Positions 28,053 to 50,452 of a DNA stretch of 64,000 bases are shown here, piece by piece. The stretch lies in the NCBI GenBank assembly GCA_902774175.1, contig CACYHG010000002.1, positions 27,297 to 91,296 on the forward strand. Reading direction: 5' to 3'. The position numbers were made by a program, and so were the translations under genes. This DNA is from an uncultured Bacteroidota bacterium (GTDB lineage Bacteria; Bacteroidota; Bacteroidia; Bacteroidales; WCHB1-69). The notes below the pieces were generated by a model. The model made no database searches. It saw nothing but the letters and a program-made list of their open reading frames with translations, and had not been told where the DNA came from. Position 1 is the first letter of the stretch. Every line of letters starts with the position of its first letter.

Positions 28053-31000
28053 TTAGAAACTGTAGTCGCTGCTTCTGTCGTAGAGCCGGAGCATTTCGCT
28101 TATCAGTATGGTCTGGAAGTATTTCTGTGAAATCTTGTAATACCACAGGTAGTTTGCATCATACATGTGGGTGAAGCGGAAGTTCAGCGCGTCCGCCTCC
28201 TTGCGGCTGACCATCTTTGCGATGCTCCCCAGATGATCCTCGGGCATGAAGATGTAGTATCTGTCCGGGTAGGCTTTCTCGTCGAAGGAGGTGTACAGTA
28301 TGTCCAGATAGACATATCGCAGGAAGCCGGGCGAGTAGGTGTAGTCGAACACATAGCTCTTTGGATGCAGCGTTCCGTTCATATCATACCAGTCTGAACG
28401 GTAGCTCTTGGAGGACTTGTCATCGTAAATTGCGGTGGCGATGCCGTCGTTGGTGCTGTACTTGAAGTTGTTGAAATGCCACCAGTAGCGGCCCCATGCA
28501 TAGTCTTTTATGTAGTATCCGTACTGGCTGACTTCACTCGGGAAGGAATAGCTCTTGCCCAATTTGTAGCTGCTGACATAGTAGCAGTACACCATTTTGT
28601 TGCTCATCTGGAAGAAGTGCGTAGGGATGTAGAGGAACGGCACCTTGTAGGGGAATCCGTCCACGGTGAAGCACTTGTCGTAGTTGCCGTTCTTCTGGTA
28701 GTAGCGGAGGTAGTCCCATTTGTGGCTGTAGCCGCGTCCGGTGAACCAGCGGGCATACCTGTTGCACTCCTGGAAGAAGTTGAACAGCTTGTCCACATCG
28801 TCGCAGATGGCCGGAATGGCGTGGTCCTCCCAGTAGAACGTCGAAGCCCAATTGCGGTTGTCGTAGGTGGAGGAGGAGAATCGCACCTCGTCCACTCTCG
28901 GGATGGTGCCGTTGGTGTACAGGGTGATGATGGAGGGTGCGCTCCAATCCTTCACGTTTCCATAACTGTCGAAGGAGCACTCCGGGAAATAGCTGGCGGG
29001 CTGGTAGGAGTAGGCTCCGGAGGAGACCGGGCGGCGATAGTCGATGGCCTTGAACTTGTCGGAGCTCTTCTTGAAGCCGGCGCTCAGCACATTCTGTGCA
29101 GCTGTGGCGTTGACCCCGCTGTTGTCCTTCCAGGTGCGCAGGCTGTTGGACGGGCTCTTTTCCCCATAGAAGGAGCATTCGCGTCTGGTGTTCTTGAAGG
29201 CGTTGCTCATTTTTACGAAATCGCCGGTCAGTACCTTGTGCCGGTAGAGCATCAGGTCGGTGGTGGCGCTCTTCTGCCGGTCGATGCAGAAATAGGCGAT
29301 GGGCGGCAGGACAATGCCGTTGGCATACATCTCAGGGTCGTCAGTTTCGTAAGGCACAAACAGGGTCATGAACTTGTTCATGCTGATCGGACAGCTCTGG
29401 CTCACATCGGTCCTGGTCGTGATGACCTCCGTGCTGACAACGGCGGACGATGGGTAGGCGGTGAGCCATGAATTCAGTTTGGAGGCGTTTTGCGAAATCA
29501 TGTCGCGGTAATTGCCGCTGACGGTGTGGAAATAGAGTGTGTAGATGGCGGTGCCGGACTGGTTGCAGAGCTTGAACTCGTTGAGCTGCGCCCGTTTGTA
29601 AAGCATGGCCGTGTCCTTGCTGCCATACGTGTTCTTGTAGTCGGTCATGGCCTGGAACTGCTTCTTCTCCACGTCGCTAAGCTGATAAGTCTTCTTCTCT
29701 GTGTACCATTTGCCGTCCTTTTTCTTTTTTACGGTGGTGGAGCGGTCGTCGATGTACTTCTGCTTCTCCTGGTCAAGGTTCCGTTTCTTAAGCTCGTTCT
29801 TGTATTTGACGGAGGCCTGCTGGTTGGACATGCTGTTTTCGGCCAGCGCGGCCTGCTTGTTCTTCTTGTATTCCTCGCTGTTGACCATGATCATCTTGAT
29901 CTTATAGTCGTAGCCGCTCTTTATGCTGCTCGGGAGGAACACCCGGATGCGCGGCAGTGAGCCGCTCTCAACATAGTCGAAATTGCATTCTGTGCCGGTC
30001 TGGCTGATTTCGCCGCCCTGCTTCACAAGGAACACGCGCAGCTCCTTGCCCTGCTTTTTCAGTTCGTTCTGGTTCAGCAGGTCCGGCCGCTTGTTGTTGA
30101 GGTAGATGTAGGCGGTGGGATGGCTCTTGCCGTCCTTTGAGCAATGGGCTGTCGGGAATTCATTGAGCGGGAAAATGCAGTCCCCGTTGTATGGCCATGT
30201 GTAGACAACCTGCCCCTTCAGCGTGGAGGGTTTGGCCTCGGTCACAAAATAGAAGGTGGTGTCCGCGCTGTATGCCTTCGAGTAGCGTTTGGCGTTCTTG
30301 CTGGTCTGGCCGTCGTTGAATTCGGGGTCGTACCAGTCGCAATTGTACTGGCTGTGGGTGGTCTTCTTCTTGAATGTTGTAAGGTTATATGGGAAGTCCG
30401 TCTTCGCGTTGGTCAGCTTGCTGTTGTAGGTGCGCCATTCGAACGCGCGTGCCTTAAGCCTGACCTTGTTCCATCTCGAGGCAGGGAATCCGCCGTCCTC
30501 ATGCTCGAAGTAATAGACATTCTCGTCCCGCGTACTGCGTTCAAATTCCATTTTCTGGTTTTTCCATGCACTGCCTTCGTATATCTGGTAGCTGATGTCG
30601 GGAGTCCACAGCACAAAGCGGAACCGGCGTGCCTTGGCGTCCTTCTCCTGTCCCTCCACAAGCACAACATCCTCGTCCCACGGCATGTTGGAGACAATGG
30701 CGCCGCGTGCGAATGGTGAGACGATGTTCGCCTCCTTGTTGGCATCCGCATAGGTGAAGGCGGGGGAGACGTTCTGGAACAGCTTCACGTTGGCCAACGG
30801 GTCGTCAGCTCCGGGGATGCAGACATCGCCCGCCTTGAAGTCCACGCTGGTGCTGATCTTGCAGAGCCCGTTGAGCAGGCTCACTTTCAGTTTCAACAGG
30901 CCGTATGCCCATGTGGGGTTGGGGGCGCCGCCCTCCAGCAGGGCGCCGATTCCGGCCTTCAGCAGCTCGATGTCGCCTTTCCAGAAACCGAGGTTCAGCC

Positions 31001-34000
31001 GCAGTCCGACCGATCCGGCCAGCATGGCATACACTCGCCCCATGGCGTAGAAGTTGTTCTTGCCGATCTGGGAGTAGCCCGCGCAACCGCTGTTGCCCAC
31101 ATCCAGCAGGGCCACGTCGAAACCGAGCGAGGCCATGATTTTCACATAGAGCAGGAAGGAGTACTCCATCTTGGCCTTGAAGGTGGCTCCCATGACAAAG
31201 CCGCCGCCATCCTTGATGGAAATCATGTTGGCGTTGCTCACCTTGCGGGCGTTGGACACCTTGTTCTCGTTCATGCCCTGGACATCCTTCCCCTTGTCCT
31301 TCTTTCCGAAAAAGAACTCCTGAACCTCGTCGTCCAATGGCGGCAGGGAGTAGGCGAAGGAGTTGCCGGTCATCAGGTACATGGTGAAGGTGGCCTTGCT
31401 GGTGAGTATGTCCAGAAGGTTGCTGCTCATTTCAAAGCGCACACATTCGTCCGCATTGGGCTTGCCGATGCTGAAATACCAGTCGGTGGTGTTCTTTTTC
31501 TTCCTGGTGCCGTTCTTGACCGTGTCCTTCTTGTAGTTCATCACCTCCAGGTCGATGGGCACATAAAGCGACATCTTCACGTCGAAGAAGTTGTTGTTCT
31601 TGCTGTCGGCGCCCTGTTTGGCGGAACCCTTGTAGTCCTTGTCGGTCGGCAGGCTGATGCCGGTGGCGTTGGTGATGGCCGCCCCGCCGTAGGAGACCGA
31701 TTTGGTCACCTTGTCCACAAAGTTGGGGACGGCGCTGCCGCCGGTGATGATGTTGGCAAGGGAGATGTCGGAGCTCACGCCCAATGAGAGGCGGAAGTAG
31801 TTGTAGGTTGCGGTCCGTTCGTAGCCGATGATGCCCTGTGCCTTCAGCAGGGCGTTGCTGTTGTTATTGCCGTCGCCGGCCGGAACATCCTTCTTGAATT
31901 TGGTCATGGCGTAGGCTGACACGTTCAGGAAGATGCCGGAGAAGTGTCCCTTGCTGATGCGCAGTGTGAGGTATCCGTCGGCATTGAGCAGGTTCTCGTT
32001 GGCCATCGCAAGGCTTACGCCCGCCTTTGCCACCCAGCTGCCCTTGCTGGGCTTGAAGGCCATGCCGGTCGACTGTATCATGTTGCCGCCAACCGATTTC
32101 TGTGTGGTGCTGTTGAGCAGCTTCTTTGCGTCGAAACTGGTGAGCGAGCTCTTGCTGTCCATGTTGTAGGCAAAACCGCCGCCCAGTCCGGTCAGGTTGA
32201 TGGGACCCAGCGGTATGCCGGTGCCGCTGAATTTGGCAGCGCCCTGGAAATACCACCAGTTGTATTTGGAGCCGTTGCTGGTTGAGGAGCCGAATCCGCC
32301 CTCCATATCCACGGTCACCTTGTCCATCATGGTGACGGCGAGCTTGCCGCTGAAGCCGTTGCCGTAGGTGGCGTCATTGCGGAAGAGGTAGAGCTTGCCC
32401 TTGAGGTGGAAGACGGTGAGGTCGGTGTTCAGCCCGATGGAATCGACTTCTCCGCCCACATTCGAGACCTCGAAGTCCTTTTTCAGGTTCACAACGCCCC
32501 ATATCTTGAACCCAGCCTCCGCACCGATGGCGAAGGTCTCCTTCTCCTCGCCGCCAAGTCCGCCGAAGCCGATTTTTCCGGCGATGGCGATGCCGATCTT
32601 CATCTTTTTGGTGTCCACCATCTCCGTGTATGGTTCCATGGTCTTCAGGCTGAAACTGAAGCCGCCGAAGCTGCCGGTGGCCACCTCGCCGTTGCCGTCG
32701 GAGGCTGCGCCGCCCATGGTCTTCTGCGGCGATGCCCATGACCATTCACCGAAGTCCCATTCAAAGCCGGAGGTCTTCACCCCCTTGTTCTCCGCCTTCT
32801 GGTAGTTATAATTGCGCATCCCCATGTGCTCGAACTTGACCAATGTGAAATTGACCGGCAGGTCGAGCTTGTTGAAGTCGATGTTGATCTTGCCGTTCAT
32901 GGTCAGGTCGAACTTGGTCTGCTTCTCCTTGAATGTCTTATGTATGAGGAAGTGGGAGGATTTGCTGTCGAAGATGACGTTGGCCGCCCACAAATCCAGT
33001 TTCAGGATGGAGTCGTCCACGAAGATGGTGAAGTCGAGGCTGTCGTGGGCAACGGCGCAGTCGTAGTTGAAGTCCCCCTTGAACAGAGGCACCCCGAAGC
33101 GTCCCCGTACATGCCCCATCTTGTATTTGTTTTTCTCGAAGTCCAGCTGGACGGTGTCAAGGGAGAACTTCCATCCGCCGCCCTTGTCGGTCTCCGCCCG
33201 AAGTATGTCGCGGGCGAAGATTTCGGCGCTGAAGCCGTTCTTGTCGATGATAAGCCCGTTGGTGCCGAAATGGATGCGGGTGCCGGGGTAGTAGTAGTGC
33301 GAGGAGTCGGTCAGCGTGCCGTTGATCCCGTACTTGTAAACCACCATCGAGTCTTTGGTGGCCTTGTCGTGGCCGGAGGTGTCCACAAAGGTGTTGCTTA
33401 TGTCGTCGGAGAGGAACACCTCGCAAAGGTCCCAGTAGAATCCGGTCCATTCCTTTTTGCTGCCCTGGAGTTTTTCATTCTCCTCCTTTTTCTTTTTGTT
33501 GTAAGCCTCTTTTTCAGATGCAGACATCTTCTTTACCTTCTCCTCCTCGGCCTTTTTCTCTTCGGCGGTCATCACCTTCTCGCCGAAATAGCCGGCGGGG
33601 AACTTCACGTCGGCAGGGGTCCGCTTTTGGGAATGGTCGTAGTAGATGCCCTTGCCGGCGGGGTAGAAGCTGAAGGTCTCGCAGCCGTCAATGGCGAAGG
33701 GATCCATGTTCACCTTGCCGTACCAGTCGCCCCATGAGGCGAAGTTGGCGGTGATGCTGGCATATACCGGCTTCTTCTCCGGTGTGCCGCTGGCCGGGTT
33801 GATGGCCATCAGCTCGCTGCCCATCTCGAACTCCAGCTGCACGTTCATCTCCTTGAATCCGCCGGTGTCGACCAGCAGGAATGTGCCGTCCTTGGGCACG
33901 CCCAGTGTGGTGGCGCGGCGGAAGCGGGTCTTGTAGCCGTCGGTCAGGTCGATGTCGTAGTTCTGGGCAAGGAACATGTAGATGCCTTTGCCGCACTCCT

Positions 34001-36758
34001 TAAGGAATCCCTCGGGGTGCATGCAGACGTTGGTGGCGACCAATGGCACGTATATCTTCTCCTCATCGCTGTGGAATATGCCGAGCAGGTTCATGATGGA
34101 GGTGGTGGGGGAGAAATACATATTATTTATTGCCAGCATGAAGTAGTGGCTCTCGTTCATCATGTCGTCGCTGACGCGCAGTGGGAAGGAGAGCACGCCC
34201 GTGGAGACGCTCTCGCCGCGTGCGGGGCCGGCCAGCCCGTTGATCTGGTTGGAATACTTCCCGTATTTTTCCAGCAGCTTCTTTATCTCCTGCTCATCCT
34301 TAAGTTGGGAGGTGAGGCGGTTCTGCTCGTTGCTGCTCAAATTGTTGATGTCGATGCCCAAGTCCAATGAGGAGAGGTAGTCTATGGTGTCGGCTGTGCT
34401 GCTGACGGCAAATCCCTTTATCACCTCGTTGTTCTTGTTTATCCTTATGGAGTCCACGCGCACTTTCAGCCAGCATTCCCCTTTGTGGAACGGCTTCCAT
34501 ACAATGTAGCCCTCGCCGGTGTAGGTGGAGTCCTTCTCGCAGAAGGTGGCGTTCTGCAGCACCAATGGGAACTGCCCGATTTTGAGCCGTGTCTTGTTTT
34601 TTATCAAATCCTTCACGTCGGGGGCGGCGGCTTTGCGCTCCTTGCCCTTCAGCGCATCGGGATGGCACTGGTAGAGGGAGTCCAGCTTGGCGGCATAATG
34701 CTTCTCGTCCACCAGTTTGAAGGTGGCGTACTGGGAACGCCCCTTGTTCACCATCAGGTATTTTTCCGGACTGGTCACGCTTATGTCGATGTAGGCCACA
34801 TACTGCTCCCCGATTTTGAGCGAATCCTTGAACAGGCTGTCCTTGCATTCGGTCTTGAGCAGGTTGGGGTAGAAGAGCAGGGTGTCCTTTATGGCCTTTT
34901 CGCGGGTCTTCCCCTTGGGCAGCTTTGCAATCAGCAGGTGGTACCTGACGGTGTCCAATGCCGATACGTTCTTGGCTCCCTTCCATGAGAATTTGAAGTC
35001 CTTGTATTTTATCACCTCCTCGATTTTGTTCCATGTTGTGTCCTCCGGATCCTTGTCTGTAAGGTCGACAGGGAAGAGGAACTGCGGCGGCAGCAGCTTG
35101 GTGAGCGCACCGCTGTCAATGCCCCACTGGAAAATGATGTGGGATGAGAAGGTGGTGTTGCCGACCATACCGACAATGCTGTCCCTGCTGCCGGAGCTGC
35201 TGCCGAGAGTGTCGGAGAGGTTGGGCACTGTGATGGTTTTGGCGTAGTTGTAGTCGACGGTGGTCAGCAGCCGGACAACATACTGGCTGCCGCTTTTCAG
35301 GCTCTTCTTCCAGCTTTCCGCATCGGTTTCAATCAGTGTGGTGTAGGAGGCGGGGTAGTTCGGGCGCGTGCGGTTGAAGCTCTTTTTCATCAGTGGCTTG
35401 CCGGCGTAGGAGAGGCTCACATCGCCGCCTGCGTATTCGTAAAGCTCCAGCACATATTTGACATGCTCCACGGAGTCTCCGCGCAACGGCATCCAGCCGA
35501 AGCGGAGCGTGGCGGTGTCTGGCAGCTTGTAGAAGGTGTTTTCAATGAAGGGATACTCCTTTTTGCTGCTTGGCTCGTAGCTGGCCTCGTCGCTGAACTG
35601 CTGCCTCACCTTTTCGATTGTCTTCTTGTCCTTGCCCGGGTTCACCATGTAGGGCTGCCGCAGCTGTGCCAGCACCTCGCTCCGGTTGTCCTTCGACTCG
35701 CTCTTGAATTTGCTTCTCCCAGGCTGCGACCTGTTGGCGCGTGTCTTGCTCTCGCCCCAGGTGAAGGCTATGATCTGGCTCACGCCGTTGTTGCCCAGTT
35801 GGGCGGTGATGTTGCTGTTCCTCGGCACCGCCTCGACCACGGCGGCGTAGGAGTGGCCAATCTGAAGCCGGAAGTGTCGGTTGGCAATCGTGTCATGGGT
35901 GTAGTACAGCTTGGTGCCTGTGCGTACTGCGGCCATCACCTGGTTGTTCTTTATGGCGGTCTGCACATTCTGGCTTTCGCCGATCTCGACTATTTTGAGT
36001 ATATATGTGAAGTCGTTCGGGGAAAGGCAGTTGGAAATCACGCCGGTCCAGCGGAAGTTCAGGTTGCGGGTGGGTGTCAGCACGGTATACTGGCTGCTGT
36101 TACGTATGTTGGAGGTGTAGTTTCCTGTTGTGACGGTCCGTTCCAGGAAGCCTTTGGTGTAGTTGTTCTGCAACGGGTTGCTGTTGCTCAGGTTGCCGGG
36201 ACCCTGCCCGATGAGGGGTGAGGTGAACTCCGGCGCGGAGCCGCTGTAGCAGATGGTGAAGCGGCAGCACTGGACCTCTCCGGCACGTATAGGGTTCGTC
36301 ACCTGCTGCTGCCACCGGTATGGGGTCACGCAGATTTCATAGTTGCCTTCGGGAAGCAGCAGCGCCTCCTTCCATGAAATGCCCGACAGCTTCAGCTCAC
36401 TGCCGTTGATGTGTCCGAAGAGCCTGTCTGCGTCCGCACGTGTGATCTGCTTTGTCTCGCCCGGTGAAAGGGTGAGTGGCTGCATTGGCGGACGGTCGGT
36501 AGGTGTGGCCAGGTTGAACTGCTTGCCCGACGCGCTGTAGTCGCAGTGGATGGTGAAGCCGAAATAGACATCCTGTTGCTGGCTGGAGGTGTTTGTCACC
36601 AGAATGTTGAAATATTTCAGAGGATTTTCCGTATATGCCACTCCTGAGGAGGGGAAGTTCCTCACCTTGGGTGTGACGGTCACATTAACCTGCGCCTGTG
36701 CGCCGTAATGCAGGCAGGCAAGAGTTATACATACACAAATGGTGAATATTCTTTTCAT
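28053..36758 (-). CDS. Giant (2901 aa) signal-peptide-bearing protein of unknown function
   Basis: An uninterrupted 8.7-kb ORF with signal peptide MKRIFTICVCITLACLHYGAQAQ. The N-terminal region has repeated F-x-W...Y-x-L-x-I...G-x-x-Y-x-x-x-V modules. Two Lys/Glu-rich stretches are present. A central Gly-rich amphipathic-strand region includes GFGGLGGEEKETFAIGAEAGF and LTGLGGGFAYNM. The C-terminus is Tyr/Trp-rich and ends ...SSDYSF. There is no T9SS tail. Confidence 0.85.
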   Translation of the reverse strand: MKRIFTICVCITLACLHYGAQAQVNVTVTPKVRNFPSSGVAYTENPLKYFNILVTNTSSQQQDVYFGFTIHCDYSASGKQFNLATPTDRPPMQPLTLSPGETKQITRADADRLFGHINGSELKLSGISWKEALLLPEGNYEICVTPYRWQQQVTNPIRAGEVQCCRFTICYSGSAPEFTSPLIGQGPGNLSNSNPLQNNYTKGFLERTVTTGNYTSNIRNSSQYTVLTPTRNLNFRWTGVISNCLSPNDFTYILKIVEIGESQNVQTAIKNNQVMAAVRTGTKLYYTHDTIANRHFRLQIGHSYAAVVEAVPRNSNITAQLGNNGVSQIIAFTWGESKTRANRSQPGRSKFKSESKDNRSEVLAQLRQPYMVNPGKDKKTIEKVRQQFSDEASYEPSSKKEYPFIENTFYKLPDTATLRFGWMPLRGDSVEHVKYVLELYEYAGGDVSLSYAGKPLMKKSFNRTRPNYPASYTTLIETDAESWKKSLKSGSQYVVRLLTTVDYNYAKTITVPNLSDTLGSSSGSRDSIVGMVGNTTFSSHIIFQWGIDSGALTKLLPPQFLFPVDLTDKDPEDTTWNKIEEVIKYKDFKFSWKGAKNVSALDTVRYHLLIAKLPKGKTREKAIKDTLLFYPNLLKTECKDSLFKDSLKIGEQYVAYIDISVTSPEKYLMVNKGRSQYATFKLVDEKHYAAKLDSLYQCHPDALKGKERKAAAPDVKDLIKNKTRLKIGQFPLVLQNATFCEKDSTYTGEGYIVWKPFHKGECWLKVRVDSIRINKNNEVIKGFAVSSTADTIDYLSSLDLGIDINNLSSNEQNRLTSQLKDEQEIKKLLEKYGKYSNQINGLAGPARGESVSTGVLSFPLRVSDDMMNESHYFMLAINNMYFSPTTSIMNLLGIFHSDEEKIYVPLVATNVCMHPEGFLKECGKGIYMFLAQNYDIDLTDGYKTRFRRATTLGVPKDGTFLLVDTGGFKEMNVQLEFEMGSELMAINPASGTPEKKPVYASITANFASWGDWYGKVNMDPFAIDGCETFSFYPAGKGIYYDHSQKRTPADVKFPAGYFGEKVMTAEEKKAEEEKVKKMSASEKEAYNKKKKEENEKLQGSKKEWTGFYWDLCEVFLSDDISNTFVDTSGHDKATKDSMVVYKYGINGTLTDSSHYYYPGTRIHFGTNGLIIDKNGFSAEIFARDILRAETDKGGGWKFSLDTVQLDFEKNKYKMGHVRGRFGVPLFKGDFNYDCAVAHDSLDFTIFVDDSILKLDLWAANVIFDSKSSHFLIHKTFKEKQTKFDLTMNGKINIDFNKLDLPVNFTLVKFEHMGMRNYNYQKAENKGVKTSGFEWDFGEWSWASPQKTMGGAASDGNGEVATGSFGGFSFSLKTMEPYTEMVDTKKMKIGIAIAGKIGFGGLGGEEKETFAIGAEAGFKIWGVVNLKKDFEVSNVGGEVDSIGLNTDLTVFHLKGKLYLFRNDATYGNGFSGKLAVTMMDKVTVDMEGGFGSSTSNGSKYNWWYFQGAAKFSGTGIPLGPINLTGLGGGFAYNMDSKSSLTSFDAKKLLNSTTQKSVGGNMIQSTGMAFKPSKGSWVAKAGVSLAMANENLLNADGYLTLRISKGHFSGIFLNVSAYAMTKFKKDVPAGDGNNNSNALLKAQGIIGYERTATYNYFRLSLGVSSDISLANIITGGSAVPNFVDKVTKSVSYGGAAITNATGISLPTDKDYKGSAKQGADSKNNNFFDVKMSLYVPIDLEVMNYKKDTVKNGTRKKKNTTDWYFSIGKPNADECVRFEMSSNLLDILTSKATFTMYLMTGNSFAYSLPPLDDEVQEFFFGKKDKGKDVQGMNENKVSNARKVSNANMISIKDGGGFVMGATFKAKMEYSFLLYVKIMASLGFDVALLDVGNSGCAGYSQIGKNNFYAMGRVYAMLAGSVGLRLNLGFWKGDIELLKAGIGALLEGGAPNPTWAYGLLKLKVSLLNGLCKISTSVDFKAGDVCIPGADDPLANVKLFQNVSPAFTYADANKEANIVSPFARGAIVSNMPWDEDVVLVEGQEKDAKARRFRFVLWTPDISYQIYEGSAWKNQKMEFERSTRDENVYYFEHEDGGFPASRWNKVRLKARAFEWRTYNSKLTNAKTDFPYNLTTFKKKTTHSQYNCDWYDPEFNDGQTSKNAKRYSKAYSADTTFYFVTEAKPSTLKGQVVYTWPYNGDCIFPLNEFPTAHCSKDGKSHPTAYIYLNNKRPDLLNQNELKKQGKELRVFLVKQGGEISQTGTECNFDYVESGSLPRIRVFLPSSIKSGYDYKIKMIMVNSEEYKKNKQAALAENSMSNQQASVKYKNELKKRNLDQEKQKYIDDRSTTVKKKKDGKWYTEKKTYQLSDVEKKQFQAMTDYKNTYGSKDTAMLYKRAQLNEFKLCNQSGTAIYTLYFHTVSGNYRDMISQNASKLNSWLTAYPSSAVVSTEVITTRTDVSQSCPISMNKFMTLFVPYETDDPEMYANGIVLPPIAYFCIDRQKSATTDLMLYRHKVLTGDFVKMSNAFKNTRRECSFYGEKSPSNSLRTWKDNSGVNATAAQNVLSAGFKKSSDKFKAIDYRRPVSSGAYSYQPASYFPECSFDSYGNVKDWSAPSIITLYTNGTIPRVDEVRFSSSTYDNRNWASTFYWEDHAIPAICDDVDKLFNFFQECNRYARWFTGRGYSHKWDYLRYYQKNGNYDKCFTVDGFPYKVPFLYIPTHFFQMSNKMVYCYYVSSYKLGKSYSFPSEVSQYGYYIKDYAWGRYWWHFNNFKYSTNDGIATAIYDDKSSKSYRSDWYDMNGTLHPKSYVFDYTYSPGFLRYVYLDILYTSFDEKAYPDRYYIFMPEDHLGSIAKMVSRKEADALNFRFTHMYDANYLWYYKISQKYFQTILISEMLRLYDRSSDYSF

Positions 36759-42551: not shown

Positions 42552-42625
42552 GGTCCCTTAGCTCAGTTGGTTAGAGCAGCTGACTCATAATCAGCGGGTC
42601 CTTGGTTCGAGCCCAAGAGGGACCA
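42552..42625 (+). tRNA. tRNA with CAU anticodon, most like tRNA-Ile2 (lysidine-modified); elongator tRNA-Met not excluded
   Basis: The cloverleaf reads GGTCCCT-TA-GCTC-AGTTGGTTA-GAGC-A-GCTGA-CTCATAA-TCAGC-GGGTC-CTTGG-TTCGAGC-CCAAG-AGGGACC-A. The D-arm and anticodon-loop sequence closely resemble E. coli ileX as I remember it. No CCA is encoded. Confidence 0.85.
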
Positions 42626-42651
42626 CTTTTTATTTTTAAAAGAAAAAATCC

Positions 42652-43181: not shown

Positions 43182-45218
43182 ATGGAATTCCGTCTGAAAG
43201 CTCCGTTTGCACCTTCCGGCGACCAGCCGGAGGCAATCCGCCAGTTGGTTGCTGGGCTCCGTGCGGGTTTGCACGACCAGACGCTGCTGGGCGTGACCGG
43301 TTCCGGCAAGACCTTCACCATAGCCAATGTGCTGCAGGAGGTTCAGCGCCCAACGCTGGTGCTCAGCCACAACAAGACTTTGGCGGCGCAATTGTACAGC
43401 GAGTTTCTGGAATTTTTCCCTGAAAACAAGGTGGAGTATTTCGTCTCCTATTACGACTATTACCAGCCGGAGGCATACATCCCCACCACCAACACCTATA
43501 TTGAAAAGGATCTCTCCATCAACGATGAGATTGAGAAGTTGAGGCTGAGCGCAACCACCGCATTGCTTTCCGGACGGCGCGATGTGGTTGTGGTCTCATC
43601 TGTTTCCTGCATTTACGGCATTGGCAATCCGGAGGAGTTCGCCAAAAACACGCAGCATCTGCGTGTCGGGCAGAAGATAGTGCGTAACAAGCTGCTGCGC
43701 GATCTGGTCAACGCACTGTATGCCCGTACGGAGACGGTGCTGGAGCGTGGCCGTTTCCGCGTCAAGGGAGACCAGGTGGACATTTTTCCGGCCTATGCGG
43801 ACGAGGCCTACCGGCTCACCTTCTGGGGCGACGAGATTGAATCCATTTCGGCCATCGATCCGGTGGAGGGCCATTTTCTGGAGAAGATGGAGCGGCTTAC
43901 AGTCTATCCGGCCAATATTTTTGTCACCTCTCCCGACATCATCAACCAGGCGGTTACTGAAATCCAGTCCGATCTTGTAAAACAGGCCGAATACTTCCGG
44001 AGTGTTGACAAACATCTGGAGGCCAAACGGCTGGAGGAGCGTGTCACCTACGATGTGGAGATGATAAAGGAGTTGGGATACTGCTCCGGTGTGGAGAACT
44101 ATTCGCGCTATTTCGACCGCCGTAGGGAGGGGGAGCGTCCCTTCTGCCTGCTGGACTATTTCCCTGATGATTTCCTGCTGGTTATAGACGAGAGCCATGT
44201 GACTGTGCCGCAAATCCGTGGCATGTACGAAGGGGACCGTTCACGCAAGCGCAATCTGGTGGAATACGGGTTCCGGCTGCCGGCCGCCCTTGACAACCGC
44301 CCGCTGAAGTTTGACGAGTTCGAGTCGCTGGTGGGGCAGACCATCTACATTTCGGCCACGCCTGCGGAATTTGAGCTGCAGGCCTCCGAAGGGGCGGTGG
44401 TGGAGCAGGTTGTGCGTCCCACGGGGCTGCTTGATCCGGTGATTGAGGTGCGTCCCTGCACCCGTCAGGTGGATGACCTGCTGGATGAGATTGAACAGGT
44501 GGTCGGAAAAGGGGAGCGGGTGCTTGTAACCACGCTGACCAAACGTATGGCGGAGGATCTCACAGCCTACCTGCAGCGGATTGATGTCCGCGTGCAGTAC
44601 ATCCATTCGGATGTGGAGACTCTGGAGCGTGTGGAGATTCTGGACAACCTGCGGGCCGGCGCAATCGATGTGCTGGTGGGGGTGAACCTGCTGCGTGAAG
44701 GGTTGGATTTGCCGGAGGTCTCCCTTGTGGCGATCCTGGATGCGGACAAGGAGGGTTTCCTGCGTTCCGCCCGTGCGCTCACGCAGACTGCAGGACGTGC
44801 CGCCCGCAACGTGAACGGGCGGGTGATTTTCTACGGCGACCACATCACGCCTTCCATGCAGCAGACCATCGATGAGACCAACCGCCGGCGTGAGAAACAG
44901 ATGCGCTACAACCGCGAGCATAACATTGTGCCTCAGACAGTGCGGCGCACCCGCAAGTCGCTCAAGCAGGAACAGGAGCCGTCAGCGTACGAAATGCCGG
45001 ATGCCGGCACTTCCGCATCGGCGCAAACGCAGATGGTGCGGGAGGAGGCCGCCGTCTACTTTTCGGAAAAGGAGCTAAAACAGCTGCTCAAATCCAAGTC
45101 CAAGGCGCTGGAGGCCGCTGTCAAGGAGCTGGATTTTGTTGAAGCCGCGCGTCTCCGTGATGAGATCAAGGCACTGAAGGAGCGGGTCTCATCCGCAGCT
45201 GCTCAAGGGCATCGTTGA
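43182..45218 (+). CDS. uvrB: Excinuclease ABC subunit B
   Basis: [19 protein letters not shown], the [10 protein letters not shown] beta-hairpin and the C-terminal UVR domain [14 protein letters not shown]. The last 8 codons plus the stop lie inside repeat copy A. Confidence 0.95.
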
Positions 45219-45324
45219 GCACCTCAATCTGCAGCGCGATTTCGGTGTTGGTCTCCTCCTGCTGCCGGTTGATGTCGTTCTGGTCGTGTAGAATCTCTTT
45301 AAGGTGCCAAAATGGCACCTTAAA
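45193..45324. repeat. 132-bp direct repeat, copy A (overlaps the uvrB 3' end and ends in a hairpin)
   Basis: 130/132 identical to 46498-46629. The mismatches are at 45221 (A vs G) and 45228 (T vs A). Confidence 0.9.
45298..45324. other. Perfect 12-bp-stem hairpin at the right edge of repeat copy A
   Basis: tttaaggtgcca-aaa-tggcaccttaaa. No T-run follows on either strand. Confidence 0.8.
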
Positions 45325-45462
45325 CATGAAAGATTGTCTTCGTTCAGTCTGATGAGGTTTGGGTCGTCAGATCAGTGTAAAAAAACGGTTTTTAAATCAA
45401 TTGTGTTAAATCGTAGTACATCGGTACTGTGTCGCCATTGTTTTTACTTTTCCTTCTTTCAG

Positions 45463-45621
45463 TTAGAATGTAAAAGTAAGCATCGATTGGATGAAAGAAG
45501 CACCTTGGGCCACACGTGCCTTCTCCTCGTCTGAAGCCTTTTCATGTTTTTCCATTTCAGCAACAAACTCGTAAGCGTCGTCTCCCTTCAAAACAGGTGT
45601 CGGTTCAATGGGTTTTGCCAT
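45463..45621 (-). CDS. Small hypothetical protein (52 aa), below the track ORF cutoff
   Basis: My own translation gives MAKPIEPTPVLKGDDAYEFVAEMEKHEKASDEEKARVAQGASFIQSMLTFTF. A TACTTTTG box lies 22 nt upstream (45643-45650). Confidence 0.45.
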   Translation of the reverse strand: MAKPIEPTPVLKGDDAYEFVAEMEKHEKASDEEKARVAQGASFIQSMLTFTF

Positions 45622-45642
45622 AAATTATTATTTTTCAAAGTG

Positions 45643-45650
45643 CAAAAGTA
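45643..45650 (-). promoter_or_regulatory. -7 box (TACTTTTG) for the 52-aa ORF
   Basis: The plus strand reads caaaagta, within the 10-mer tgcaaaagta shared by 8 promoters in this window. Confidence 0.45.
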
Positions 45651-45781
45651 CAACTTTTATCTCAAATGTTGGAGTTTTATTGACTTTTTTTTTATATTGT
45701 AAAAAAAACAATCGTAACTCTCTGATAAATATATGATTTTTTTGAGATATGGAAGGTTGAATTCGGGAATGAGTAATTCAG

Positions 45782-46351
45782 TTATAACAGACCTAATTCG
45801 TTTTCGCATTCATAACAGACAAATATGATTTTACAAATAGCATCTTTTTTCAAATAGATAATTACCTCCGTGAATTCTGATTCATCAATGAAACGAATTT
45901 TGTCACATTTGATTTTACGATGGTAATATGCTTCCAATTTTTTTCTTTCATCCCCCACTTTAATGTGATTGGACAAAGATATTAAAGTGTCTGAAATGAC
46001 AGCACTCAATAGAGATTTGCCATATTCGTCACTTTCAGCAAACAGCATGTACGAATCATGATAGCACATTTTTTTCAGATTGTATGTTCTTTCGCCTGCC
46101 TGAATTTTATGATTGTTAATGCTGTCTGCATTATTTTCAAGCCATTCAATGGTGGAATTTGTAAATGGTGATGTTTGTAATTGTGAGTCATAAATGGTGG
46201 AATCATTTTCCATGAACGTTGAATCCCAATTTAATGTAGGTTCATGGATTATGGCATTTTCCTCCTGTCGGGAATTTGTCTGCTGTGTGTTTTGGGAACT
46301 GCAGCCAAATGCCAATGCGATTAAAAGGCAAATAAATGATGCTGTCTTCAT
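45782..46351 (-). CDS. Hypothetical lipoprotein (189 aa) in the low-GC islet
   Basis: MKTASFICLLIALAFGCSSQ has a lipobox. I prefer the start at 46351 because the -7 box at 46376-46383 lies only 10 nt from the alternative ATG at 46366. The gene is AT-rich. Confidence 0.65.
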   Translation of the reverse strand: MKTASFICLLIALAFGCSSQNTQQTNSRQEENAIIHEPTLNWDSTFMENDSTIYDSQLQTSPFTNSTIEWLENNADSINNHKIQAGERTYNLKKMCYHDSYMLFAESDEYGKSLLSAVISDTLISLSNHIKVGDERKKLEAYYHRKIKCDKIRFIDESEFTEVIIYLKKDAICKIIFVCYECENELGLL

Positions 46352-46375
46352 GATATTAATGTTCAATCAATTTGC

Positions 46376-46383
46376 AAAAGTAC
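46376..46383 (-). promoter_or_regulatory. -7 box (TACTTTTG) for the islet lipoprotein
   Basis: The plus strand reads caaaagta, 25 nt upstream of the ATG at 46351. Confidence 0.45.
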
Positions 46384-46431
46384 TCAAATTCTGCACACAA
46401 AGTGCCTTTGCCGGAAAAAAATATCAAAAAT

Positions 46432-46623
46432 TTATTCCCCTGTATCCGTGTCCTCCTGCCGGAACCCAATCTGTTTCCGAGGTGACTCCGGTTTCGCCCG
46501 CAGCTGCTCAAGGGCATCGTTGAGCGCCTCAAACTGCAGCGCGATTTCGGTGTTGGTCTCCTCCTGCTGCCGGTTGATGTCGTTCTGGTCGTGTAGAATC
46601 TCTTTAAGGTGCCAAAATGGCAC
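46432..46623 (-). CDS. Possible small ORF (63 aa, GTG start) whose first 44 codons are the repeat sequence
   Basis: [63 protein letters not shown]. It starts inside the hairpin, uses a non-ATG start, and matches no family I recognise. It may not be expressed. Confidence 0.25.
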   Translation of the reverse strand: MPFWHLKEILHDQNDINRQQEETNTEIALQFEALNDALEQLRAKPESPRKQIGFRQEDTDTGE

Positions 46624-46629
46624 CTTAAA
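46498..46629. repeat. 132-bp direct repeat, copy B (ends in a hairpin 8 nt from the rhuM stop)
   Basis: 130/132 identical to 45193-45324. Confidence 0.9.
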
Positions 46630-46630
46630 G
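46602..46630. other. Perfect 13-bp-stem hairpin at the right edge of repeat copy B
   Basis: ctttaaggtgcca-aaa-tggcaccttaaag. Confidence 0.8.
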
Positions 46631-46637
46631 AGTCAAA

Positions 46638-47546
46638 TTAAATGTTTTTAAGAATCATTTCTGCAGATACCTCCATCTTTGAGAATGCGAACAGCCGTTT
46701 GCCTAGGTCTTTAAAGGAGGCGCCAATGTGGTAGACAGTATTGTCAGTAATAAGAAATCGGTCGTGGAAGTTATTCGATTCCATGATGTTTATGGGTGTA
46801 TATTGTCGGCTGTGTCTTTCGATGTCAAGAGCCAATGCCTCGCTGATATTCCTTGTGATAATGGTTGCTTGGACGGATGTTTCCCGTTTGGAAAGCATCA
46901 GCAGCACAGATTCGTCAATATAATTGTCAATTAGAGTGATGTTTTCCTTGGCCGACTTTATCAGATCAGTTGCAAAGACGTAGGCGTCGAATATTTGTCC
47001 GTTGTAGAACACCCCTTCTTTCTGTGGTAGGGAAGTGCGTACAAAAAAATCCACTTTTTCCTGTAGCTCATGTATCTGTTCCGTATGTTCCTGTAGCTGA
47101 TGATCGATCCTTTGTTCCATGAACATCATATGTCTGTTAATACTGTATCCATGCAGTAGATATTCTTTGAGAATCCTGCTTGCCCACTGTCGGAACCGTA
47201 CGCCACAAATGGAGTTGACCCTGTAGCCTACACTGATTATCAAGTCCAGATTGTAAAATGTTACTTCATGCGTTTGTGTTTTACCATGAATGGCTCCGTG
47301 TTGGGTGGTTGTTGCATTTTTTGCAACAACCATATCCTGTTTCAGCTCACCACAGTCAAAGATATTTTTGATATGGCGGGATATGGTTGATTTGTTGCGC
47401 TGGAACAGTAATGCCATCTGGTCTAAAGTCAGCCAGACAGTTTCATTTGCCAGCTGTACCTCCAATTGCACTATGCCATCATCGCTTTTGTATACAACGA
47501 TGGATTCATCAGATGGTTGGAATATCGTCAGATTAGTGTTATCCAT
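46638..47546 (-). CDS. rhuM: RhuM-family (virulence-associated/DNA-binding) protein
   Basis: IVVYKSDDGIVQLEVQLANETVWLTLDQMALLFQRNKSTISRHIKNIF...FYNLDLIISVGYRVNSICGVRFRQWASRILKEYL matches the conserved RhuM N-terminal region. GC is lower than the flanking genes. Confidence 0.8.
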   Translation of the reverse strand: MDNTNLTIFQPSDESIVVYKSDDGIVQLEVQLANETVWLTLDQMALLFQRNKSTISRHIKNIFDCGELKQDMVVAKNATTTQHGAIHGKTQTHEVTFYNLDLIISVGYRVNSICGVRFRQWASRILKEYLLHGYSINRHMMFMEQRIDHQLQEHTEQIHELQEKVDFFVRTSLPQKEGVFYNGQIFDAYVFATDLIKSAKENITLIDNYIDESVLLMLSKRETSVQATIITRNISEALALDIERHSRQYTPINIMESNNFHDRFLITDNTVYHIGASFKDLGKRLFAFSKMEVSAEMILKNI

Positions 47547-47587
47547 TTTTTTACTTTGTTAGTGGTTGTAATGTTAGTGAACTTTTG

Positions 47588-47595
47588 CAAAAGTA
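47588..47595 (-). promoter_or_regulatory. -7 box (TACTTTTG) for rhuM, inside the 14-bp palindrome acttttgcaaaagt
   Basis: The plus strand reads caaaagta, 42 nt upstream of the ATG at 47546. Confidence 0.45.
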
Positions 47596-47707
47596 GTCAT
47601 TTTTCCGACAGCTTTTCTCGAAACAGTTTAATTTATTATAACTCGTTGATATGAATATATATAACGATTAATGTAAAAAAAGCTGTAATCCGTATTCAGA
47701 TTTCGTG

Positions 47708-47715
47708 TATCTTTG
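47708..47715 (+). promoter_or_regulatory. -7 box TATCTTTG for pepP
   Basis: tatctttg lies 25 nt upstream of the ATG at 47740. Confidence 0.5.
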
Positions 47716-47739
47716 CACTCTCATTAAAAAAACAGAACC

Positions 47740-49128
47740 ATGTTTAGCAAAGAAACCTACCTGCAACGCAGGAACCAACTGAAAAACAGTGTTAAAAACG
47801 GAGTGTTGCTTTTCCTTGGCAACAACGAGGCTCCGATGAACTATCCCTCTAACACCTACCGTTTCCGGCAGGACAGCCATTTCCTCTATTTCTTCGGCCT
47901 GCAGCTGGACCATCTGGCCGCCGTCATCGACGCGGATGAGGACCGTGAAATCCTTTTCGGCGACGACTACACCATCGACGACATCATCTGGATGGGGGAC
48001 CAGCCGAGCATCCAATCCCTTGCGGAACGCTGCGGCGTTGCCGAAAGCCGTCCCTTCGCAGCCCTGGCCGAATATCTGAAAAAGGCGCAGGAGGCCGGAC
48101 GCACAATCCATTTTCTGCCGCCGTACCGTCATGACAACAGAATCCTGCTGCACCAGCTGCTGGGGATTCCGTTCGAAAAGCTGAAGGAGTCCGCTTCCGT
48201 CCCGATGATCAAAGGGGTGGTGGCGTTGCGGGAGCGTAAGAGTGCCGAAGAGATTGCAGAAATGGAGAAAATCTGTGACCTCGGTGTCGACATGCACCTC
48301 TCCGCAATGCGTGGTGCCAAGGCAGGCCGTCTTGAACGCGAGCTGGCCGGTACCGCTGAGGGAATATCCATGAGCGGCGGCGCGGGTGTCTCATTCCCGG
48401 TCATCCTGTCCCAAAACGGTGAGACACTGCACAACCACAACCATGAACAGCTGCTCGAAAACGGACGTATGCTGCTTTGCGATGCCGGTGCTGAGGCCAT
48501 GTCCGGCTATTCTTCCGACTACACGCGCACCTTCCCTGTGAGCGGCAAGTTCACCCAGAAGCAGCGTGAAATCTATGAGATTGTTTTGCGTGCCAACATG
48601 GAGACCTTCCAGCTGGCGCGTCCGGGCATCCGCTATTTCGAGGTGCATCTGAACGCATACCGCGTAATTGCCGAAGGGCTGACAGCATTGGGGCTTATGA
48701 AGGGCAATCCGGCGGACGCGGCGTTGGCCGGCGCACCCGCGCTCTTCATGCCGCACGGCCTCGGCCACATGCTCGGCCTTGATGTGCACGACATGGAGGA
48801 TCTTGGCGAAAACTATGTGGGCTATGACGAAACATTCCAGCGCAGCACCATCTTCGGGCACGGCAGCCTTCGTTGCGGCAAGACATTGCAGCCCGGCTTC
48901 ATCGTGACGGACGAGCCCGGCATCTACTTCATCCCGAAACTTATCGCCATCTGGGAGAAGGAGGGGCGTTTCGCCGAATACATTAATTATAATAAGGTGA
49001 GGGAATACATCGGCTTCGGAGGCATCCGCATCGAGGACGATGTGCTCATTACCGATACCGGCTGCCGTTTGCTGGGCAAACCGCTGCCCAAGCAGCCCGA
49101 CGAACTCGAAGCCATTATCGGCAAATAA
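47740..49128 (+). CDS. pepP: Xaa-Pro aminopeptidase (M24B, aminopeptidase P family)
   Basis: YRFRQDSHFLYFFG, the DAGAE...YSSDYTRTFP and HGLGHMLGLDVHD metal ligands, and GIRIEDDVLIT. Confidence 0.85.
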   Translation: MFSKETYLQRRNQLKNSVKNGVLLFLGNNEAPMNYPSNTYRFRQDSHFLYFFGLQLDHLAAVIDADEDREILFGDDYTIDDIIWMGDQPSIQSLAERCGVAESRPFAALAEYLKKAQEAGRTIHFLPPYRHDNRILLHQLLGIPFEKLKESASVPMIKGVVALRERKSAEEIAEMEKICDLGVDMHLSAMRGAKAGRLERELAGTAEGISMSGGAGVSFPVILSQNGETLHNHNHEQLLENGRMLLCDAGAEAMSGYSSDYTRTFPVSGKFTQKQREIYEIVLRANMETFQLARPGIRYFEVHLNAYRVIAEGLTALGLMKGNPADAALAGAPALFMPHGLGHMLGLDVHDMEDLGENYVGYDETFQRSTIFGHGSLRCGKTLQPGFIVTDEPGIYFIPKLIAIWEKEGRFAEYINYNKVREYIGFGGIRIEDDVLITDTGCRLLGKPLPKQPDELEAIIGK

Positions 49129-49160
49129 AAAAGAGAGGGTCAACCGACCCTCTCTTTTTA
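49127..49160. terminator. Bidirectional rho-independent terminator between convergent pepP and the OMP gene
   Basis: A perfect 11-bp stem aagagagggtc-aacc-gaccctctctt, flanked by an A-run on the left and a T-run on the right. Confidence 0.75.
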
Positions 49161-50418: not shown

Positions 50419-50452
50419 TAAAAAAAAAGGCTTCCGTTGGGAAGCCTTTTTT
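50419..50452 (-). terminator. Rho-independent terminator after the T9SS-cargo gene
   Basis: A 9-bp stem aaggcttcc-gttg-ggaagcctt. The A-run on the plus strand is the U-run for the minus-strand transcript. Confidence 0.7.

Follow-up and report, generated by a model that had tools for sequence, protein, structure and literature searches.

The spacer between uvrB and pepP in the 64,000-nucleotide stretch analysed here (hereafter the window; contig CACYHG010000002.1 of an uncultured Bacteroidota bacterium, order Bacteroidales, WCHB1-69) contains two near-identical 132-bp direct repeats, each ending in a perfect hairpin and together bracketing low-GC DNA. A first-pass annotation, made from the sequence alone, took the repeats for the attL and attR sites of an integrated cassette or, failing that, for the traces of hairpin-guided insertion. 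We arrive at a different account. The copies can be recognized as remnants of two genes of the ORF6N family, which are very probably kept alike by gene conversion and serve as portable homology for the gain and loss of cargo genes. The hairpin belongs to the ORF6N genes themselves, which in many phyla carry this palindrome within their reading frames.

Organization of the uvrB-pepP spacer

On the left the spacer is bounded by uvrB (43182 to 45218, plus strand, from the list of open reading frames, ORFs), the product of which possesses the Pfam domains UvrB_inter, UvrB and Helicase_C and a UVR motif at residues 633-667 of 678. On the right the island ends at the core gene pepP (47740 to 49128, plus strand), which specifies an Xaa-Pro aminopeptidase (AMP_N and Peptidase_M24). 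From 45166 to 47546 everything is read on the minus strand. In this direction the series begins with a rhuM-type gene of 302 aa (46638 to 47546; Pfam Virulence_RhuM, E = 1.4e-20; PADLOC PDLC04879, E = 3e-116, candidate defence PDC-S05). The palindrome of repeat copy B follows 5 nt beyond its stop codon (46638-46640), with the family-conserved codons F-D-S directly upstream, and then copy B itself and its native tail, AKPESPRKQIGFRQEDTDTGE and a stop codon, this remnant as a whole covering 46432 to 46629. Next are a TAnnTTTG box (ca. 46375-46382) and the gene for a predicted lipoprotein of 189 aa (45782 to 46351; a 194-aa form extends to 46366) with a signal peptide and Cys lipobox in its translation, followed by a second TAnnTTTG box and a 52-aa ORF (45463 to 45621; ORF list). 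After about 140 nt come the palindrome of copy A, copy A and, finally, the antisense of the uvrB 3' end. The two genes between the copies are, as the first-pass annotation had it, low in G+C (29-37% between the copies versus 55-62% in uvrB and pepP), and each has a TAnnTTTG box of its own. Neither product has a usable family match in Pfam, NCBIfam, PHROGs or PADLOC.

Read directly from the sequence, copy A (45193-45324) and copy B (46498-46629) are identical at 130 of 132 nucleotides, the mismatches being 45221/46526 (A/G) and 45228/46533 (T/A). A repeat search returned a single family, 45185-45324 and 46490-46629, and between them the two approaches bear out the length, the identity and the two differing positions originally given for the repeat. 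The plus strand of either copy ends in the perfect palindrome TTTAAGGTGCCA-AAA-TGGCACCTTAAA. A stem of 12-13 bp with a 3-nt loop had been proposed for both; the perfect hairpin and the loop stand, while the stem measures 12 bp in copy A (45298-45324) and 15 bp in copy B (46600-46632), because in the latter the flanks CTC/GAG pair too. Folded as single-stranded DNA, hairpin A has an energy of -11.9 kcal/mol (z = -6.5) and hairpin B one of -16.5 kcal/mol (z = -9.8), and none of 200 shuffled sequences folded as well. In the whole window the unit and the hairpin are each present in only two copies, against a chance expectation of 0.

The uvrB stop codon falls inside copy A, so that the final 26 nt of the gene overlap the repeat. 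Since these last eight codons and the stop (45193-45218) are the antisense of ORF6N coil sequence, the arrival of the island replaced the native 3' end of uvrB just past the UVR motif. Pfam revealed no integrase, transposase or other recombinase and no Y1/HUH gene among the genes called up to about 8 kb to the left and right of the locus, in agreement with the earlier reading. A tRNA or tmRNA gene as integration target was considered and rejected: the sole tRNA (Met, 42552-42626) lies 2.6 kb off, beyond uvrB. A permissive Rfam search of 44900-47800 gave chance-level matches only (E > 1).

The repeat copies are ORF6N gene remnants

The minus-strand ORFs of the two copies had only seven protein matches in a collection of 5.8 billion sequences. 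These comprised small ORFs and a longer type, ...IMRAFVAIRHAV...EILHDQNDINR...PRKQIGF, exemplified by MRAFVAIRHAV...VEEILHDQNDINRMQEETNTEIALQIEAINDALDQLREKSLTPRKQIGFKTEKQ. That the repeat is a real micro-gene was rejected, as the search with the 63-aa ORF gave only those seven small proteins and no independent small-protein family; Pfam had no match to the 53- and 63-aa ORFs of the copies. A metagenome scan with a 20-nt pattern taken from the coil recovered 17 longer ORF6N-type frames sharing the C-terminal region, most of them of about 230-290 codons. One of these, in contig L162, is an intact ORF6N gene by Pfam (PF10543, E = 2.7e-33). Window positions 45676-46604 are 94.8% identical to L162 at the DNA level; therefore, an intact ORF6N gene lies there directly upstream of the same lipoprotein gene, and copy B corresponds to the 3' end of that gene. 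It includes the palindrome, an internal deletion junction, the coiled coil and the native C-terminus.

Copy A is 95.3% identical to the same intact gene over 107 nt (45193-45299); overall, the repeat matches the 3' part of intact ORF6N genes at 93-95% of nucleotides. Copy A has the palindrome, the same deletion junction (TTAAAGAGATT) and C-terminal coiled-coil codons on the minus strand, and is truncated at uvrB; this junction with uvrB recurs in L003, L004, L006 and L007. Next to it, at 45325 to 45445, lies the 5' remnant of the uvrB-proximal ORF6N gene, also on the minus strand. This consists of the promoter region, ACACTGATCTGACGACCCAAACCTCA (T-D-L-T-T-Q-T-S) and ...RLNEDNLSC running into the palindrome, with the frame broken and the start codon lost. 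Since the ORF6N genes in L004 and L162 have a matching promoter and matching opening codons (MDNTDLTTQTS), copy A is what is left of a second, gutted ORF6N gene abutting uvrB. The two copies thus continue differently, copy B into a native C-terminus and copy A into uvrB, and we identify them as minus-strand remnants of two different genes of the ORF6N family (PF10543).

In both copies the palindrome encodes LRCHFGTLK. This peptide conforms to the signature of the family palindrome, L-[RK]-[CS]-[QH]-x-[GVA]-T-[LS], situated between the N-domain and ...YLPYAFTEQG, and both the peptide and its DNA are found in the ORF6N frames of L033, L040, L077 and L099. In the window it is joined directly to ...EILHDQ, and the ca. 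70-80 codons that separate the two in the intact genes of L101 and L118, which have the same palindrome, are absent from both copies. The deletion junction falls within a short match, ...CTTAAAGAG(T/A)GG after the palindrome versus ...GTGGAAGAGATTCT in the coil, which suggests that the deletion arose by microhomology. Both copies lack the N-terminal ORF6N domain, and their coil and palindrome motif stand in different frames; we regard the copies as pseudogene fragments, non-functional remnants and not genes.

The rhuM gene and the ORF6N genes also share a promoter region and first codons (MDNTNLT and MDNTDLT, respectively; window 47525-47716 versus 45364-45385), and the 5' region of rhuM is ca. 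83% identical over 199 nt to positions 67-264 of L156. This suggests that 5' modules have been exchanged between the two gene types.

Alleles of the spacer in related genomes

Five versions of the uvrB-pepP spacer were found at a core-gene identity of ca. 96-97%. The allele of the window (W, also in L001) has both repeat copies. So does allele G (L128-L133, including the metagenome-assembled genome GCA_017525565.1 from NCBI), which possesses in addition 453 bp following the 52-aa ORF with a 168-aa GNAT gene (Pfam Acetyltransf_10/7; phrog_1758 acetyltransferase, E = 2e-35). Allele S (L003, Bacteroidales UBA1195, and L150) consists of rhuM, one copy of the repeat and uvrB, with an additional ORF6N gene upstream of rhuM in the case of L150. 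In L142, copy A, the GNAT gene and the 52-aa ORF are followed by 1.3 kb of other DNA replacing the lipoprotein gene and rhuM. The last allele (L; L004, L006 and L007) has a longer ORF6N pseudogene beside uvrB, with a different palindrome. Both copies are present in independent assemblies of other samples (L001/L127 and L128-L132).

A single-copy site between uvrB and rhuM, which the first-pass annotation had proposed to look for, is accordingly found in L003 and L150; homologous recombination and att-type integration predict this state equally. Its view that the DNA between the copies is foreign also finds support in the low G+C content and in the presence or absence of this DNA among close relatives. 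The spacer can be regarded as a small variable hotspot for foreign low-GC genes, in which the cassette appears to have been gained and lost while cargo changed at points unrelated to the repeat as well.

One such point is 45444 to 45445, where L128-L133 and L142 carry the extra 453 bp. In these relatives the 52-aa ORF and GNAT make up a two-gene unit, in which the ORF comes first and GNAT lies directly 3' of it (L129, 6908-7414); with this segment gone from the window, the 52-aa ORF is orphaned of its partner. By its arrangement the pair resembles a small-protein/GNAT two-gene module and is possibly a toxin-antitoxin system. PADLOC returned no defence-family match for the GNAT protein, nor for the lipoprotein or the 52-aa ORF.

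Concerted evolution of the copies

Over the 132-bp unit, copies A and B differ at 2 positions in lineage W and at 8 in lineage G, while copy A of W differs from copy A of G at 13 and copy B of W from copy B of G at 9. Within the 3' 100 nt of the unit there are 2 (W) and 4 (G) differences within a genome versus 9 for every between-genome pair, and both lineage-G copies share substitutions without a counterpart in either window copy. Since copies within a genome are more alike than positional counterparts, gene conversion is indicated. The coil occurs in two haplotypes, and both copies in any one genome are always of the same type: type 1 in L004, L003 and both window copies, and type 2 in L162, L142, the upstream ORF6N gene of L150 and both lineage-G copies. 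Because type 2 is that of L162, where the gene lies upstream of the lipoprotein gene, and type 1 that of L004, where it is uvrB-proximal, conversion appears to have run from A to B in W and from B to A in G. The lineage-G copies also differ from those of the window in 1-nt indels beside the stem and in the flipped loop of copy A.

The left edge of the repeat had been described as sharp, which is true of the window genome. In lineage G, identity extends ca. 10 nt further toward uvrB; on this side the window copies are thus bounded where a conversion tract or the homology itself runs out, and not at a fixed site. The first-pass annotation had also reasoned that both copies in diverged form in all relatives would point to an ancient, immobile tandem duplication, an outcome that lineage G, with its two copies 8 differences apart, matches in part.

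Among lineages W, G and S, uvrB and pepP diverge by 3.3-4.1%. By comparison, rhuM is 99.8-99.9% identical between lineages and the segment with the lipoprotein gene and the 52-aa ORF 99.6%, and 200-nt bins of the island contain 0-4 mismatches, the sole exception being the copy-B bin with 13. The near-identical tract extends ca. 500 bp into pepP and has its other end at ORF6N-derived sequence; copy A and the 5' remnant are ca. 6% diverged from lineage G, like resident DNA. Such a contrast between island and flanks is the pattern that would be expected of the recent spread of an island between diverged strains by homologous recombination.

These data also bear on a simpler history, in which the window lineage recently underwent a single tandem duplication or Campbell-type insertion and the identity of 130/132 would reflect youth and not gene conversion. 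We consider it improbable. The copies do differ at only two positions, with one private change in each relative to the form IEA of L003 and L004, but lineage G has the same two-copy architecture and flanks at a core-gene divergence of ca. 3.7%, and the repeats of W and G differ at 9-13 positions while the adjacent cargo differs by ca. 0.4%. Furthermore, copy B holds native ORF6N C-terminal sequence absent from copy A, so that it is no simple copy of A.

The palindrome of ORF6N and RhuM-type genes

A scan with the pattern TTAAGGTGCCAnnnTGGCACCTTAA, using one genome per species, found at least 119 loci in many phyla; by our estimate, ca. 0.1 matches would be expected by chance for its 22 specified bases. 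The taxa among the matches listed include Elusimicrobia, Omnitrophota, Planctomycetota, Bacilli, Tenericutes, Proteobacteria, Bacteroidota, Saccharibacteria and an archaeon. The palindrome encodes LRC[QH]xGTL and stands between ...RFPxDFMFxLTxEE... and ...KYLPYAFTEQGVAMLS... (KYLPYAFTEQG). Among the matches listed (118 loci), the ORF6N flanks were found on both sides of it in 83, on one side in 7 and on neither in 28. Because the palindrome resides inside ORF6N frames across phyla, the hairpin does not serve to mark where this cassette ends.

The genes recovered with the coil pattern, which had not been chosen for palindromes, contain up to three perfect ones each, with stems mostly of 11-14 bp, 3-nt loops and stem sequences that differ from gene to gene (TTAAGGTCAC, TTGAAATCAC and TTGAGGTCAC). 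An independent sample of viral contigs was picked by the downstream peptide motif [AV]F[TS]ExG[VI][ASL]M, giving 61 distinct loci. A perfect stem of at least 9 bp was found 37-52 nt upstream of the motif in 23 of them versus 8 of 831 control windows. The collection of viral contigs did not contain the exact hairpin of the window but is rich in ORF6N genes bearing other variants of the palindrome.

In 40 distinct units, stem positions 5-10 are paired in 75-97%, most of these positions showing two to four types of pair, and pairing fades past position 12. An alignment of 28 units has 92.6% of its cells paired versus 68.6% when shuffled and 31-45% with the partner slid; compensatory change is seen in 10 of the 12 pairs, and the covariation score of 0.631, versus 0.177, was reached by none of 500 shuffles. 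The covarying pairs include synonymous third positions; by our reading of the units, for instance, a Leu codon (TTA/TTG) covaries with the Leu (TTA) or Ser (TCA) codon seven codons on. Therefore, selection on the protein alone is insufficient to explain them.

Mismatches in homologous palindromes are A-C in 15 cases versus G-T in 17, without a G-T bias, and loops in frame are found either way round (AAT 38 and ATT 27; AAA 11 and TTT 5). An RNA-level hairpin, that is, a terminator or mRNA structure, was rejected on these two grounds and because no U-tract follows the stem. The data point, if weakly, to a DNA palindrome rather than a hairpin of the sense-strand RNA.

Five unambiguous loop inversions separate close relatives. 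AAA and TTT are exchanged between copies A and B of lineage G, between the window and both L142 and L150, and between the viral loci L212 and L221; AAC and GTT between L140 and L160; and AAAAA and TTTTT in rhuM between the window and L150. The palindrome of the window rhuM (47306-47332; plus strand TGGTTGTTGCA-TTTTT-TGCAACAACCA, coding-strand loop AAAAA) has an 11-bp stem and encodes VVAKNATT. In the rhuM gene of L150 (93.4% DNA identity to that of the window) the loop is inverted and the peptide is VVAFFATT. A palindrome with different stem sequences is retained at this site in more distant RhuM genes (L149, L151, L157 and L059).

Two or three palindrome-encoded units (LRSQIVTS, LKSQIATS and similar) are present in the intact ORF6N genes of L135, L136, L140, L141, L143-L146, L149, L151, L154, L158, L160 and L161, with acidic spacers between them that vary in length and sequence between close alleles. 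It looks as if units were duplicated and deleted inside the reading frame. Outside or between ORF6N frames, three to five different perfect palindromes (stems of 10-17 bp, 3-nt loops) can be clustered in a few hundred bases, as in L009, L046 and L126 and also in L063, L071 and L082. In L057 and L088 a GGTGCC palindrome lies just upstream of the ORF6N start, like an operator.

In the literature searched we found no prior description of an intragenic palindrome in ORF6N, KilA-N or RhuM genes. It may be purely mutational, the product of template switching on tolerated sequence, or it may be functional. We raise, as a tentative and rather doubtful proposal, that the palindrome of ORF6N/RhuM-type (PDC-S05) genes is a functional DNA element, in which loop flipping by template switching toggles codons and which acts as a fragile site and point of homology for the modules of defence islands. 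If so, a flip (QN to HF, KN to FF, and back) would toggle one or two codons of a conserved motif and create a two-state variant of a candidate defence protein. A single mechanism would then account for the covariation across phyla, for the variation between one and three units in a gene, for the clusters of solo palindromes and for the junctions at this locus.

The same survey weighs on hairpin-guided single-strand recombination, the second reading of the first-pass annotation. Here the palindrome would be recognized by an HUH enzyme (IS200/IS605-like or RAYT-like) or an integron-type enzyme, and cassettes would be inserted alongside. It is true that one repeat end coincides exactly with the hairpin, that three rearrangement junctions lie within 8 nt of the palindrome, that the 28 listed matches without a recognizable ORF6N frame often form clusters of three to five different palindromes, and that ORF6N genes can hold one to three units. 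Nevertheless we judge this reading very unlikely. The 83 loci with both flanks have the palindrome inside an apparently intact frame, where it encodes a conserved peptide, and the hairpin of the window is this same intragenic palindrome. The stems vary so widely between genes that there is no single conserved recognition sequence, and the perfect palindrome with its 3-nt loop lacks the extrahelical bases of attC. Neither an HUH (Y1) nor an IntI gene lies near the locus in the region of the window, and 64 kb contain just two of the hairpins.

Elsewhere in the window, perfect GC-rich hairpins at 49128-49159 and 50423-50452, with A-runs and T-runs alongside, lie between convergent or adjacent core genes and look like ordinary bidirectional terminators. 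A 2901-aa ORF occupies 28053-36758 on the minus strand.

Proposed mechanism

We propose that cargo genes (rhuM and the lipoprotein gene and 52-aa ORF, with GNAT in relatives) are separated by minus-strand ORF6N remnants, which are very probably held alike by gene conversion and provide the homology through which cargo comes and goes. Copy A would derive from the ORF6N gene abutting uvrB, and copy B from the one natively preceding the lipoprotein gene, its 5' part having been replaced by rhuM; one shared internal deletion would join the palindrome to the C-terminal coiled-coil codons in both. The copies would be near-identical because gene conversion homogenizes them, and the repeat ends sharp because homology stops there. 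One limit would be the uvrB junction in copy A versus the native C-terminus in copy B, and the other the palindrome, past which the upstream sequences of the two remnants differ. General homologous recombination between the repeats could then insert, delete or swap cargo, making a dedicated recombinase unnecessary. Alternatively, a repeat could recombine with ORF6N sequence on incoming DNA, with pepP as the second arm. Crossovers in copy B, or in copy A and uvrB, would give rise to single-copy and two-copy alleles. With three junctions within 8 nt of it and its loop inverted in relatives, the hairpin-prone palindrome probably contributed to the clustering of the rearrangement junctions.

Several points weigh against this scheme. 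One repeat end lies exactly at the outer base of the hairpin, as a structure-specific recombinase would leave it. Homologous recombination over just 132 bp is inefficient, if adequate on evolutionary time scales. For the deletion junction to be shared, one copy must have been replaced across it by the sequence of the other or of some common donor, which is plausible. The reconstructed history rests on few metagenome contigs, of which several measure less than 2.5 kb, and its single-copy alleles fit insertion and deletion alike. Finally, enzymes were sought over ca. 8 kb on each side and further repeat copies over the 64-kb window, and a structure-specific enzyme acting in trans keeps a small probability.

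The attL/attR reading of the first-pass annotation supposes that a 1.3-kb segment carrying its own copy of the 132-bp target was integrated site-specifically by an integrase encoded elsewhere. Direct repeats bracketing low-GC DNA, the single-copy alleles and the overlap of the repeat with the 3' end of a housekeeping gene are what made this attractive, but the rest of the evidence leaves it scarcely tenable. The repeat is the coding sequence of two ORF6N gene copies with different continuations, and no recombinase gene lies within ca. 8 kb on either side. The end of identity moves by ca. 10 nt between lineages, so that the boundaries are not fixed. The lineage-G copies, for all their 8 differences, with indels and a flipped loop, share derived substitutions, as copies in concerted evolution do. 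Cargo changes ignore the repeat, as in the loss of GNAT at 45444/45445 and the other cargo of L142. Least credible of all is an assembly artefact, a collapsed or chimeric metagenome contig: the assembly is of the metagenome type and the short contigs L002 and L134 break exactly at the repeat, but contig breaks are expected at any true repeat, and several independent assemblies (ENA, the NCBI genome GCA_017525565.1 and Logan) span both copies with consistent flanks.

We therefore return to ORF6N remnants under gene conversion. For annotation, the lesson is that an att site can be mimicked by a long direct repeat of near-identical copies, edged by a hairpin, that consists of pseudogene fragments under gene conversion, and that comparing paralogues within a genome with positional counterparts between genomes separates the two. 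For the biology of defence islands, remnants of a multi-copy family would act as portable homology by which cargo is gained, lost and exchanged between diverged strains without a dedicated recombinase. The repeat itself is an ordinary finding; the unexpected result is the family-wide palindrome with its compensatory changes and loop flips. This palindrome (perfect over 10-14 bp, at a fixed coding position) may matter more than the repeat: phages and defence islands across many phyla abound in ORF6N and RhuM-type genes. If the palindrome is more than mutational housekeeping, a gene family that is very common and obscure in function would have a feature at the DNA level that is so far undescribed.

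Comparison with known systems

The ORF6N (PF10543; phage anti-repressor-like) and RhuM families are both listed by PADLOC as the defence candidate PDC-S05, and RhuM-like genes have been described in restriction-modification and defence neighbourhoods (PMC3710099). The window rhuM and the intact ORF6N gene of L162 both match PDC-S05. In L149 one strand reads GDSL lipase, ORF6N, RhuM, TIR (SpbK-like), a 344-aa ORF, AAA_14/DUF4143 (PDC-S01), ORF6N and KilA-N (PDC-S22), and in L161 the order is GDSL lipase, ORF6N and GmrSD; by these annotations, intact ORF6N genes of this subfamily sit among cargo of predicted defence type. The PADLOC profile PDLC04869 (PDC-S05) joins the N-part of ORF6N to the C-terminal domain of the window rhuM, a fusion encoded in L059 and L120; L022 has this C-terminal domain too, but past the ORF6N stop and in a different frame. 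As in ORF6N genes, the hairpin of the repeat encodes the family motif LRC[QH]xGTL at the position usual in the family; unlike them, the window copies are without the N-terminal domain, broken in frame and internally deleted.

Like the attL/attR sites of integrase islands, the locus has direct repeats on both sides of foreign DNA that adjoins the 3' end of a core gene, and relatives show a single-copy, empty state. It differs in having no integrase near the locus, in that its repeats are paralogous fragments under gene conversion with a variable boundary, and in cargo changes that occur elsewhere. It resembles an array of integron cassettes in its small, promoter-proximal cargo genes of foreign composition, separated by a repeated hairpin-forming element. 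Unlike an integron it has no IntI, attI or Pc; its hairpin is perfect, has a 3-nt loop and lies within a protein motif, and the cargo genes have their own promoters.

Rickettsia palindromic elements (RPEs), repetitive extragenic palindromic (REP) sequences and bacterial interspersed mosaic elements (BIMEs) are in-frame or dispersed palindromic elements. The ORF6N palindromes are like them in being short palindromic units within reading frames, one to three per gene, together with intergenic clusters. They are unlike them in that the units, of ca. 25-31 bp, are far shorter than RPEs, belong to one protein family at one position and have no transposase that we could see.

A parallel to the palindrome itself is template switching at inverted repeats (quasipalindromes), by which the arms are homogenized and the spacer is inverted (PMC8794818, PMC8604942 and PMC7202029). 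Perfect stems kept by multi-base compensatory changes, loop inversions between close relatives and the lack of a G-T bias are all in keeping with such mutagenesis, and on the two marks of arm homogenization and spacer inversion the palindrome can be classed as an inverted repeat maintained by template switching. Unlike the usual cases, it occupies a fixed coding position in a gene family of many phyla, and its inversion alters one or two codons of a conserved motif.

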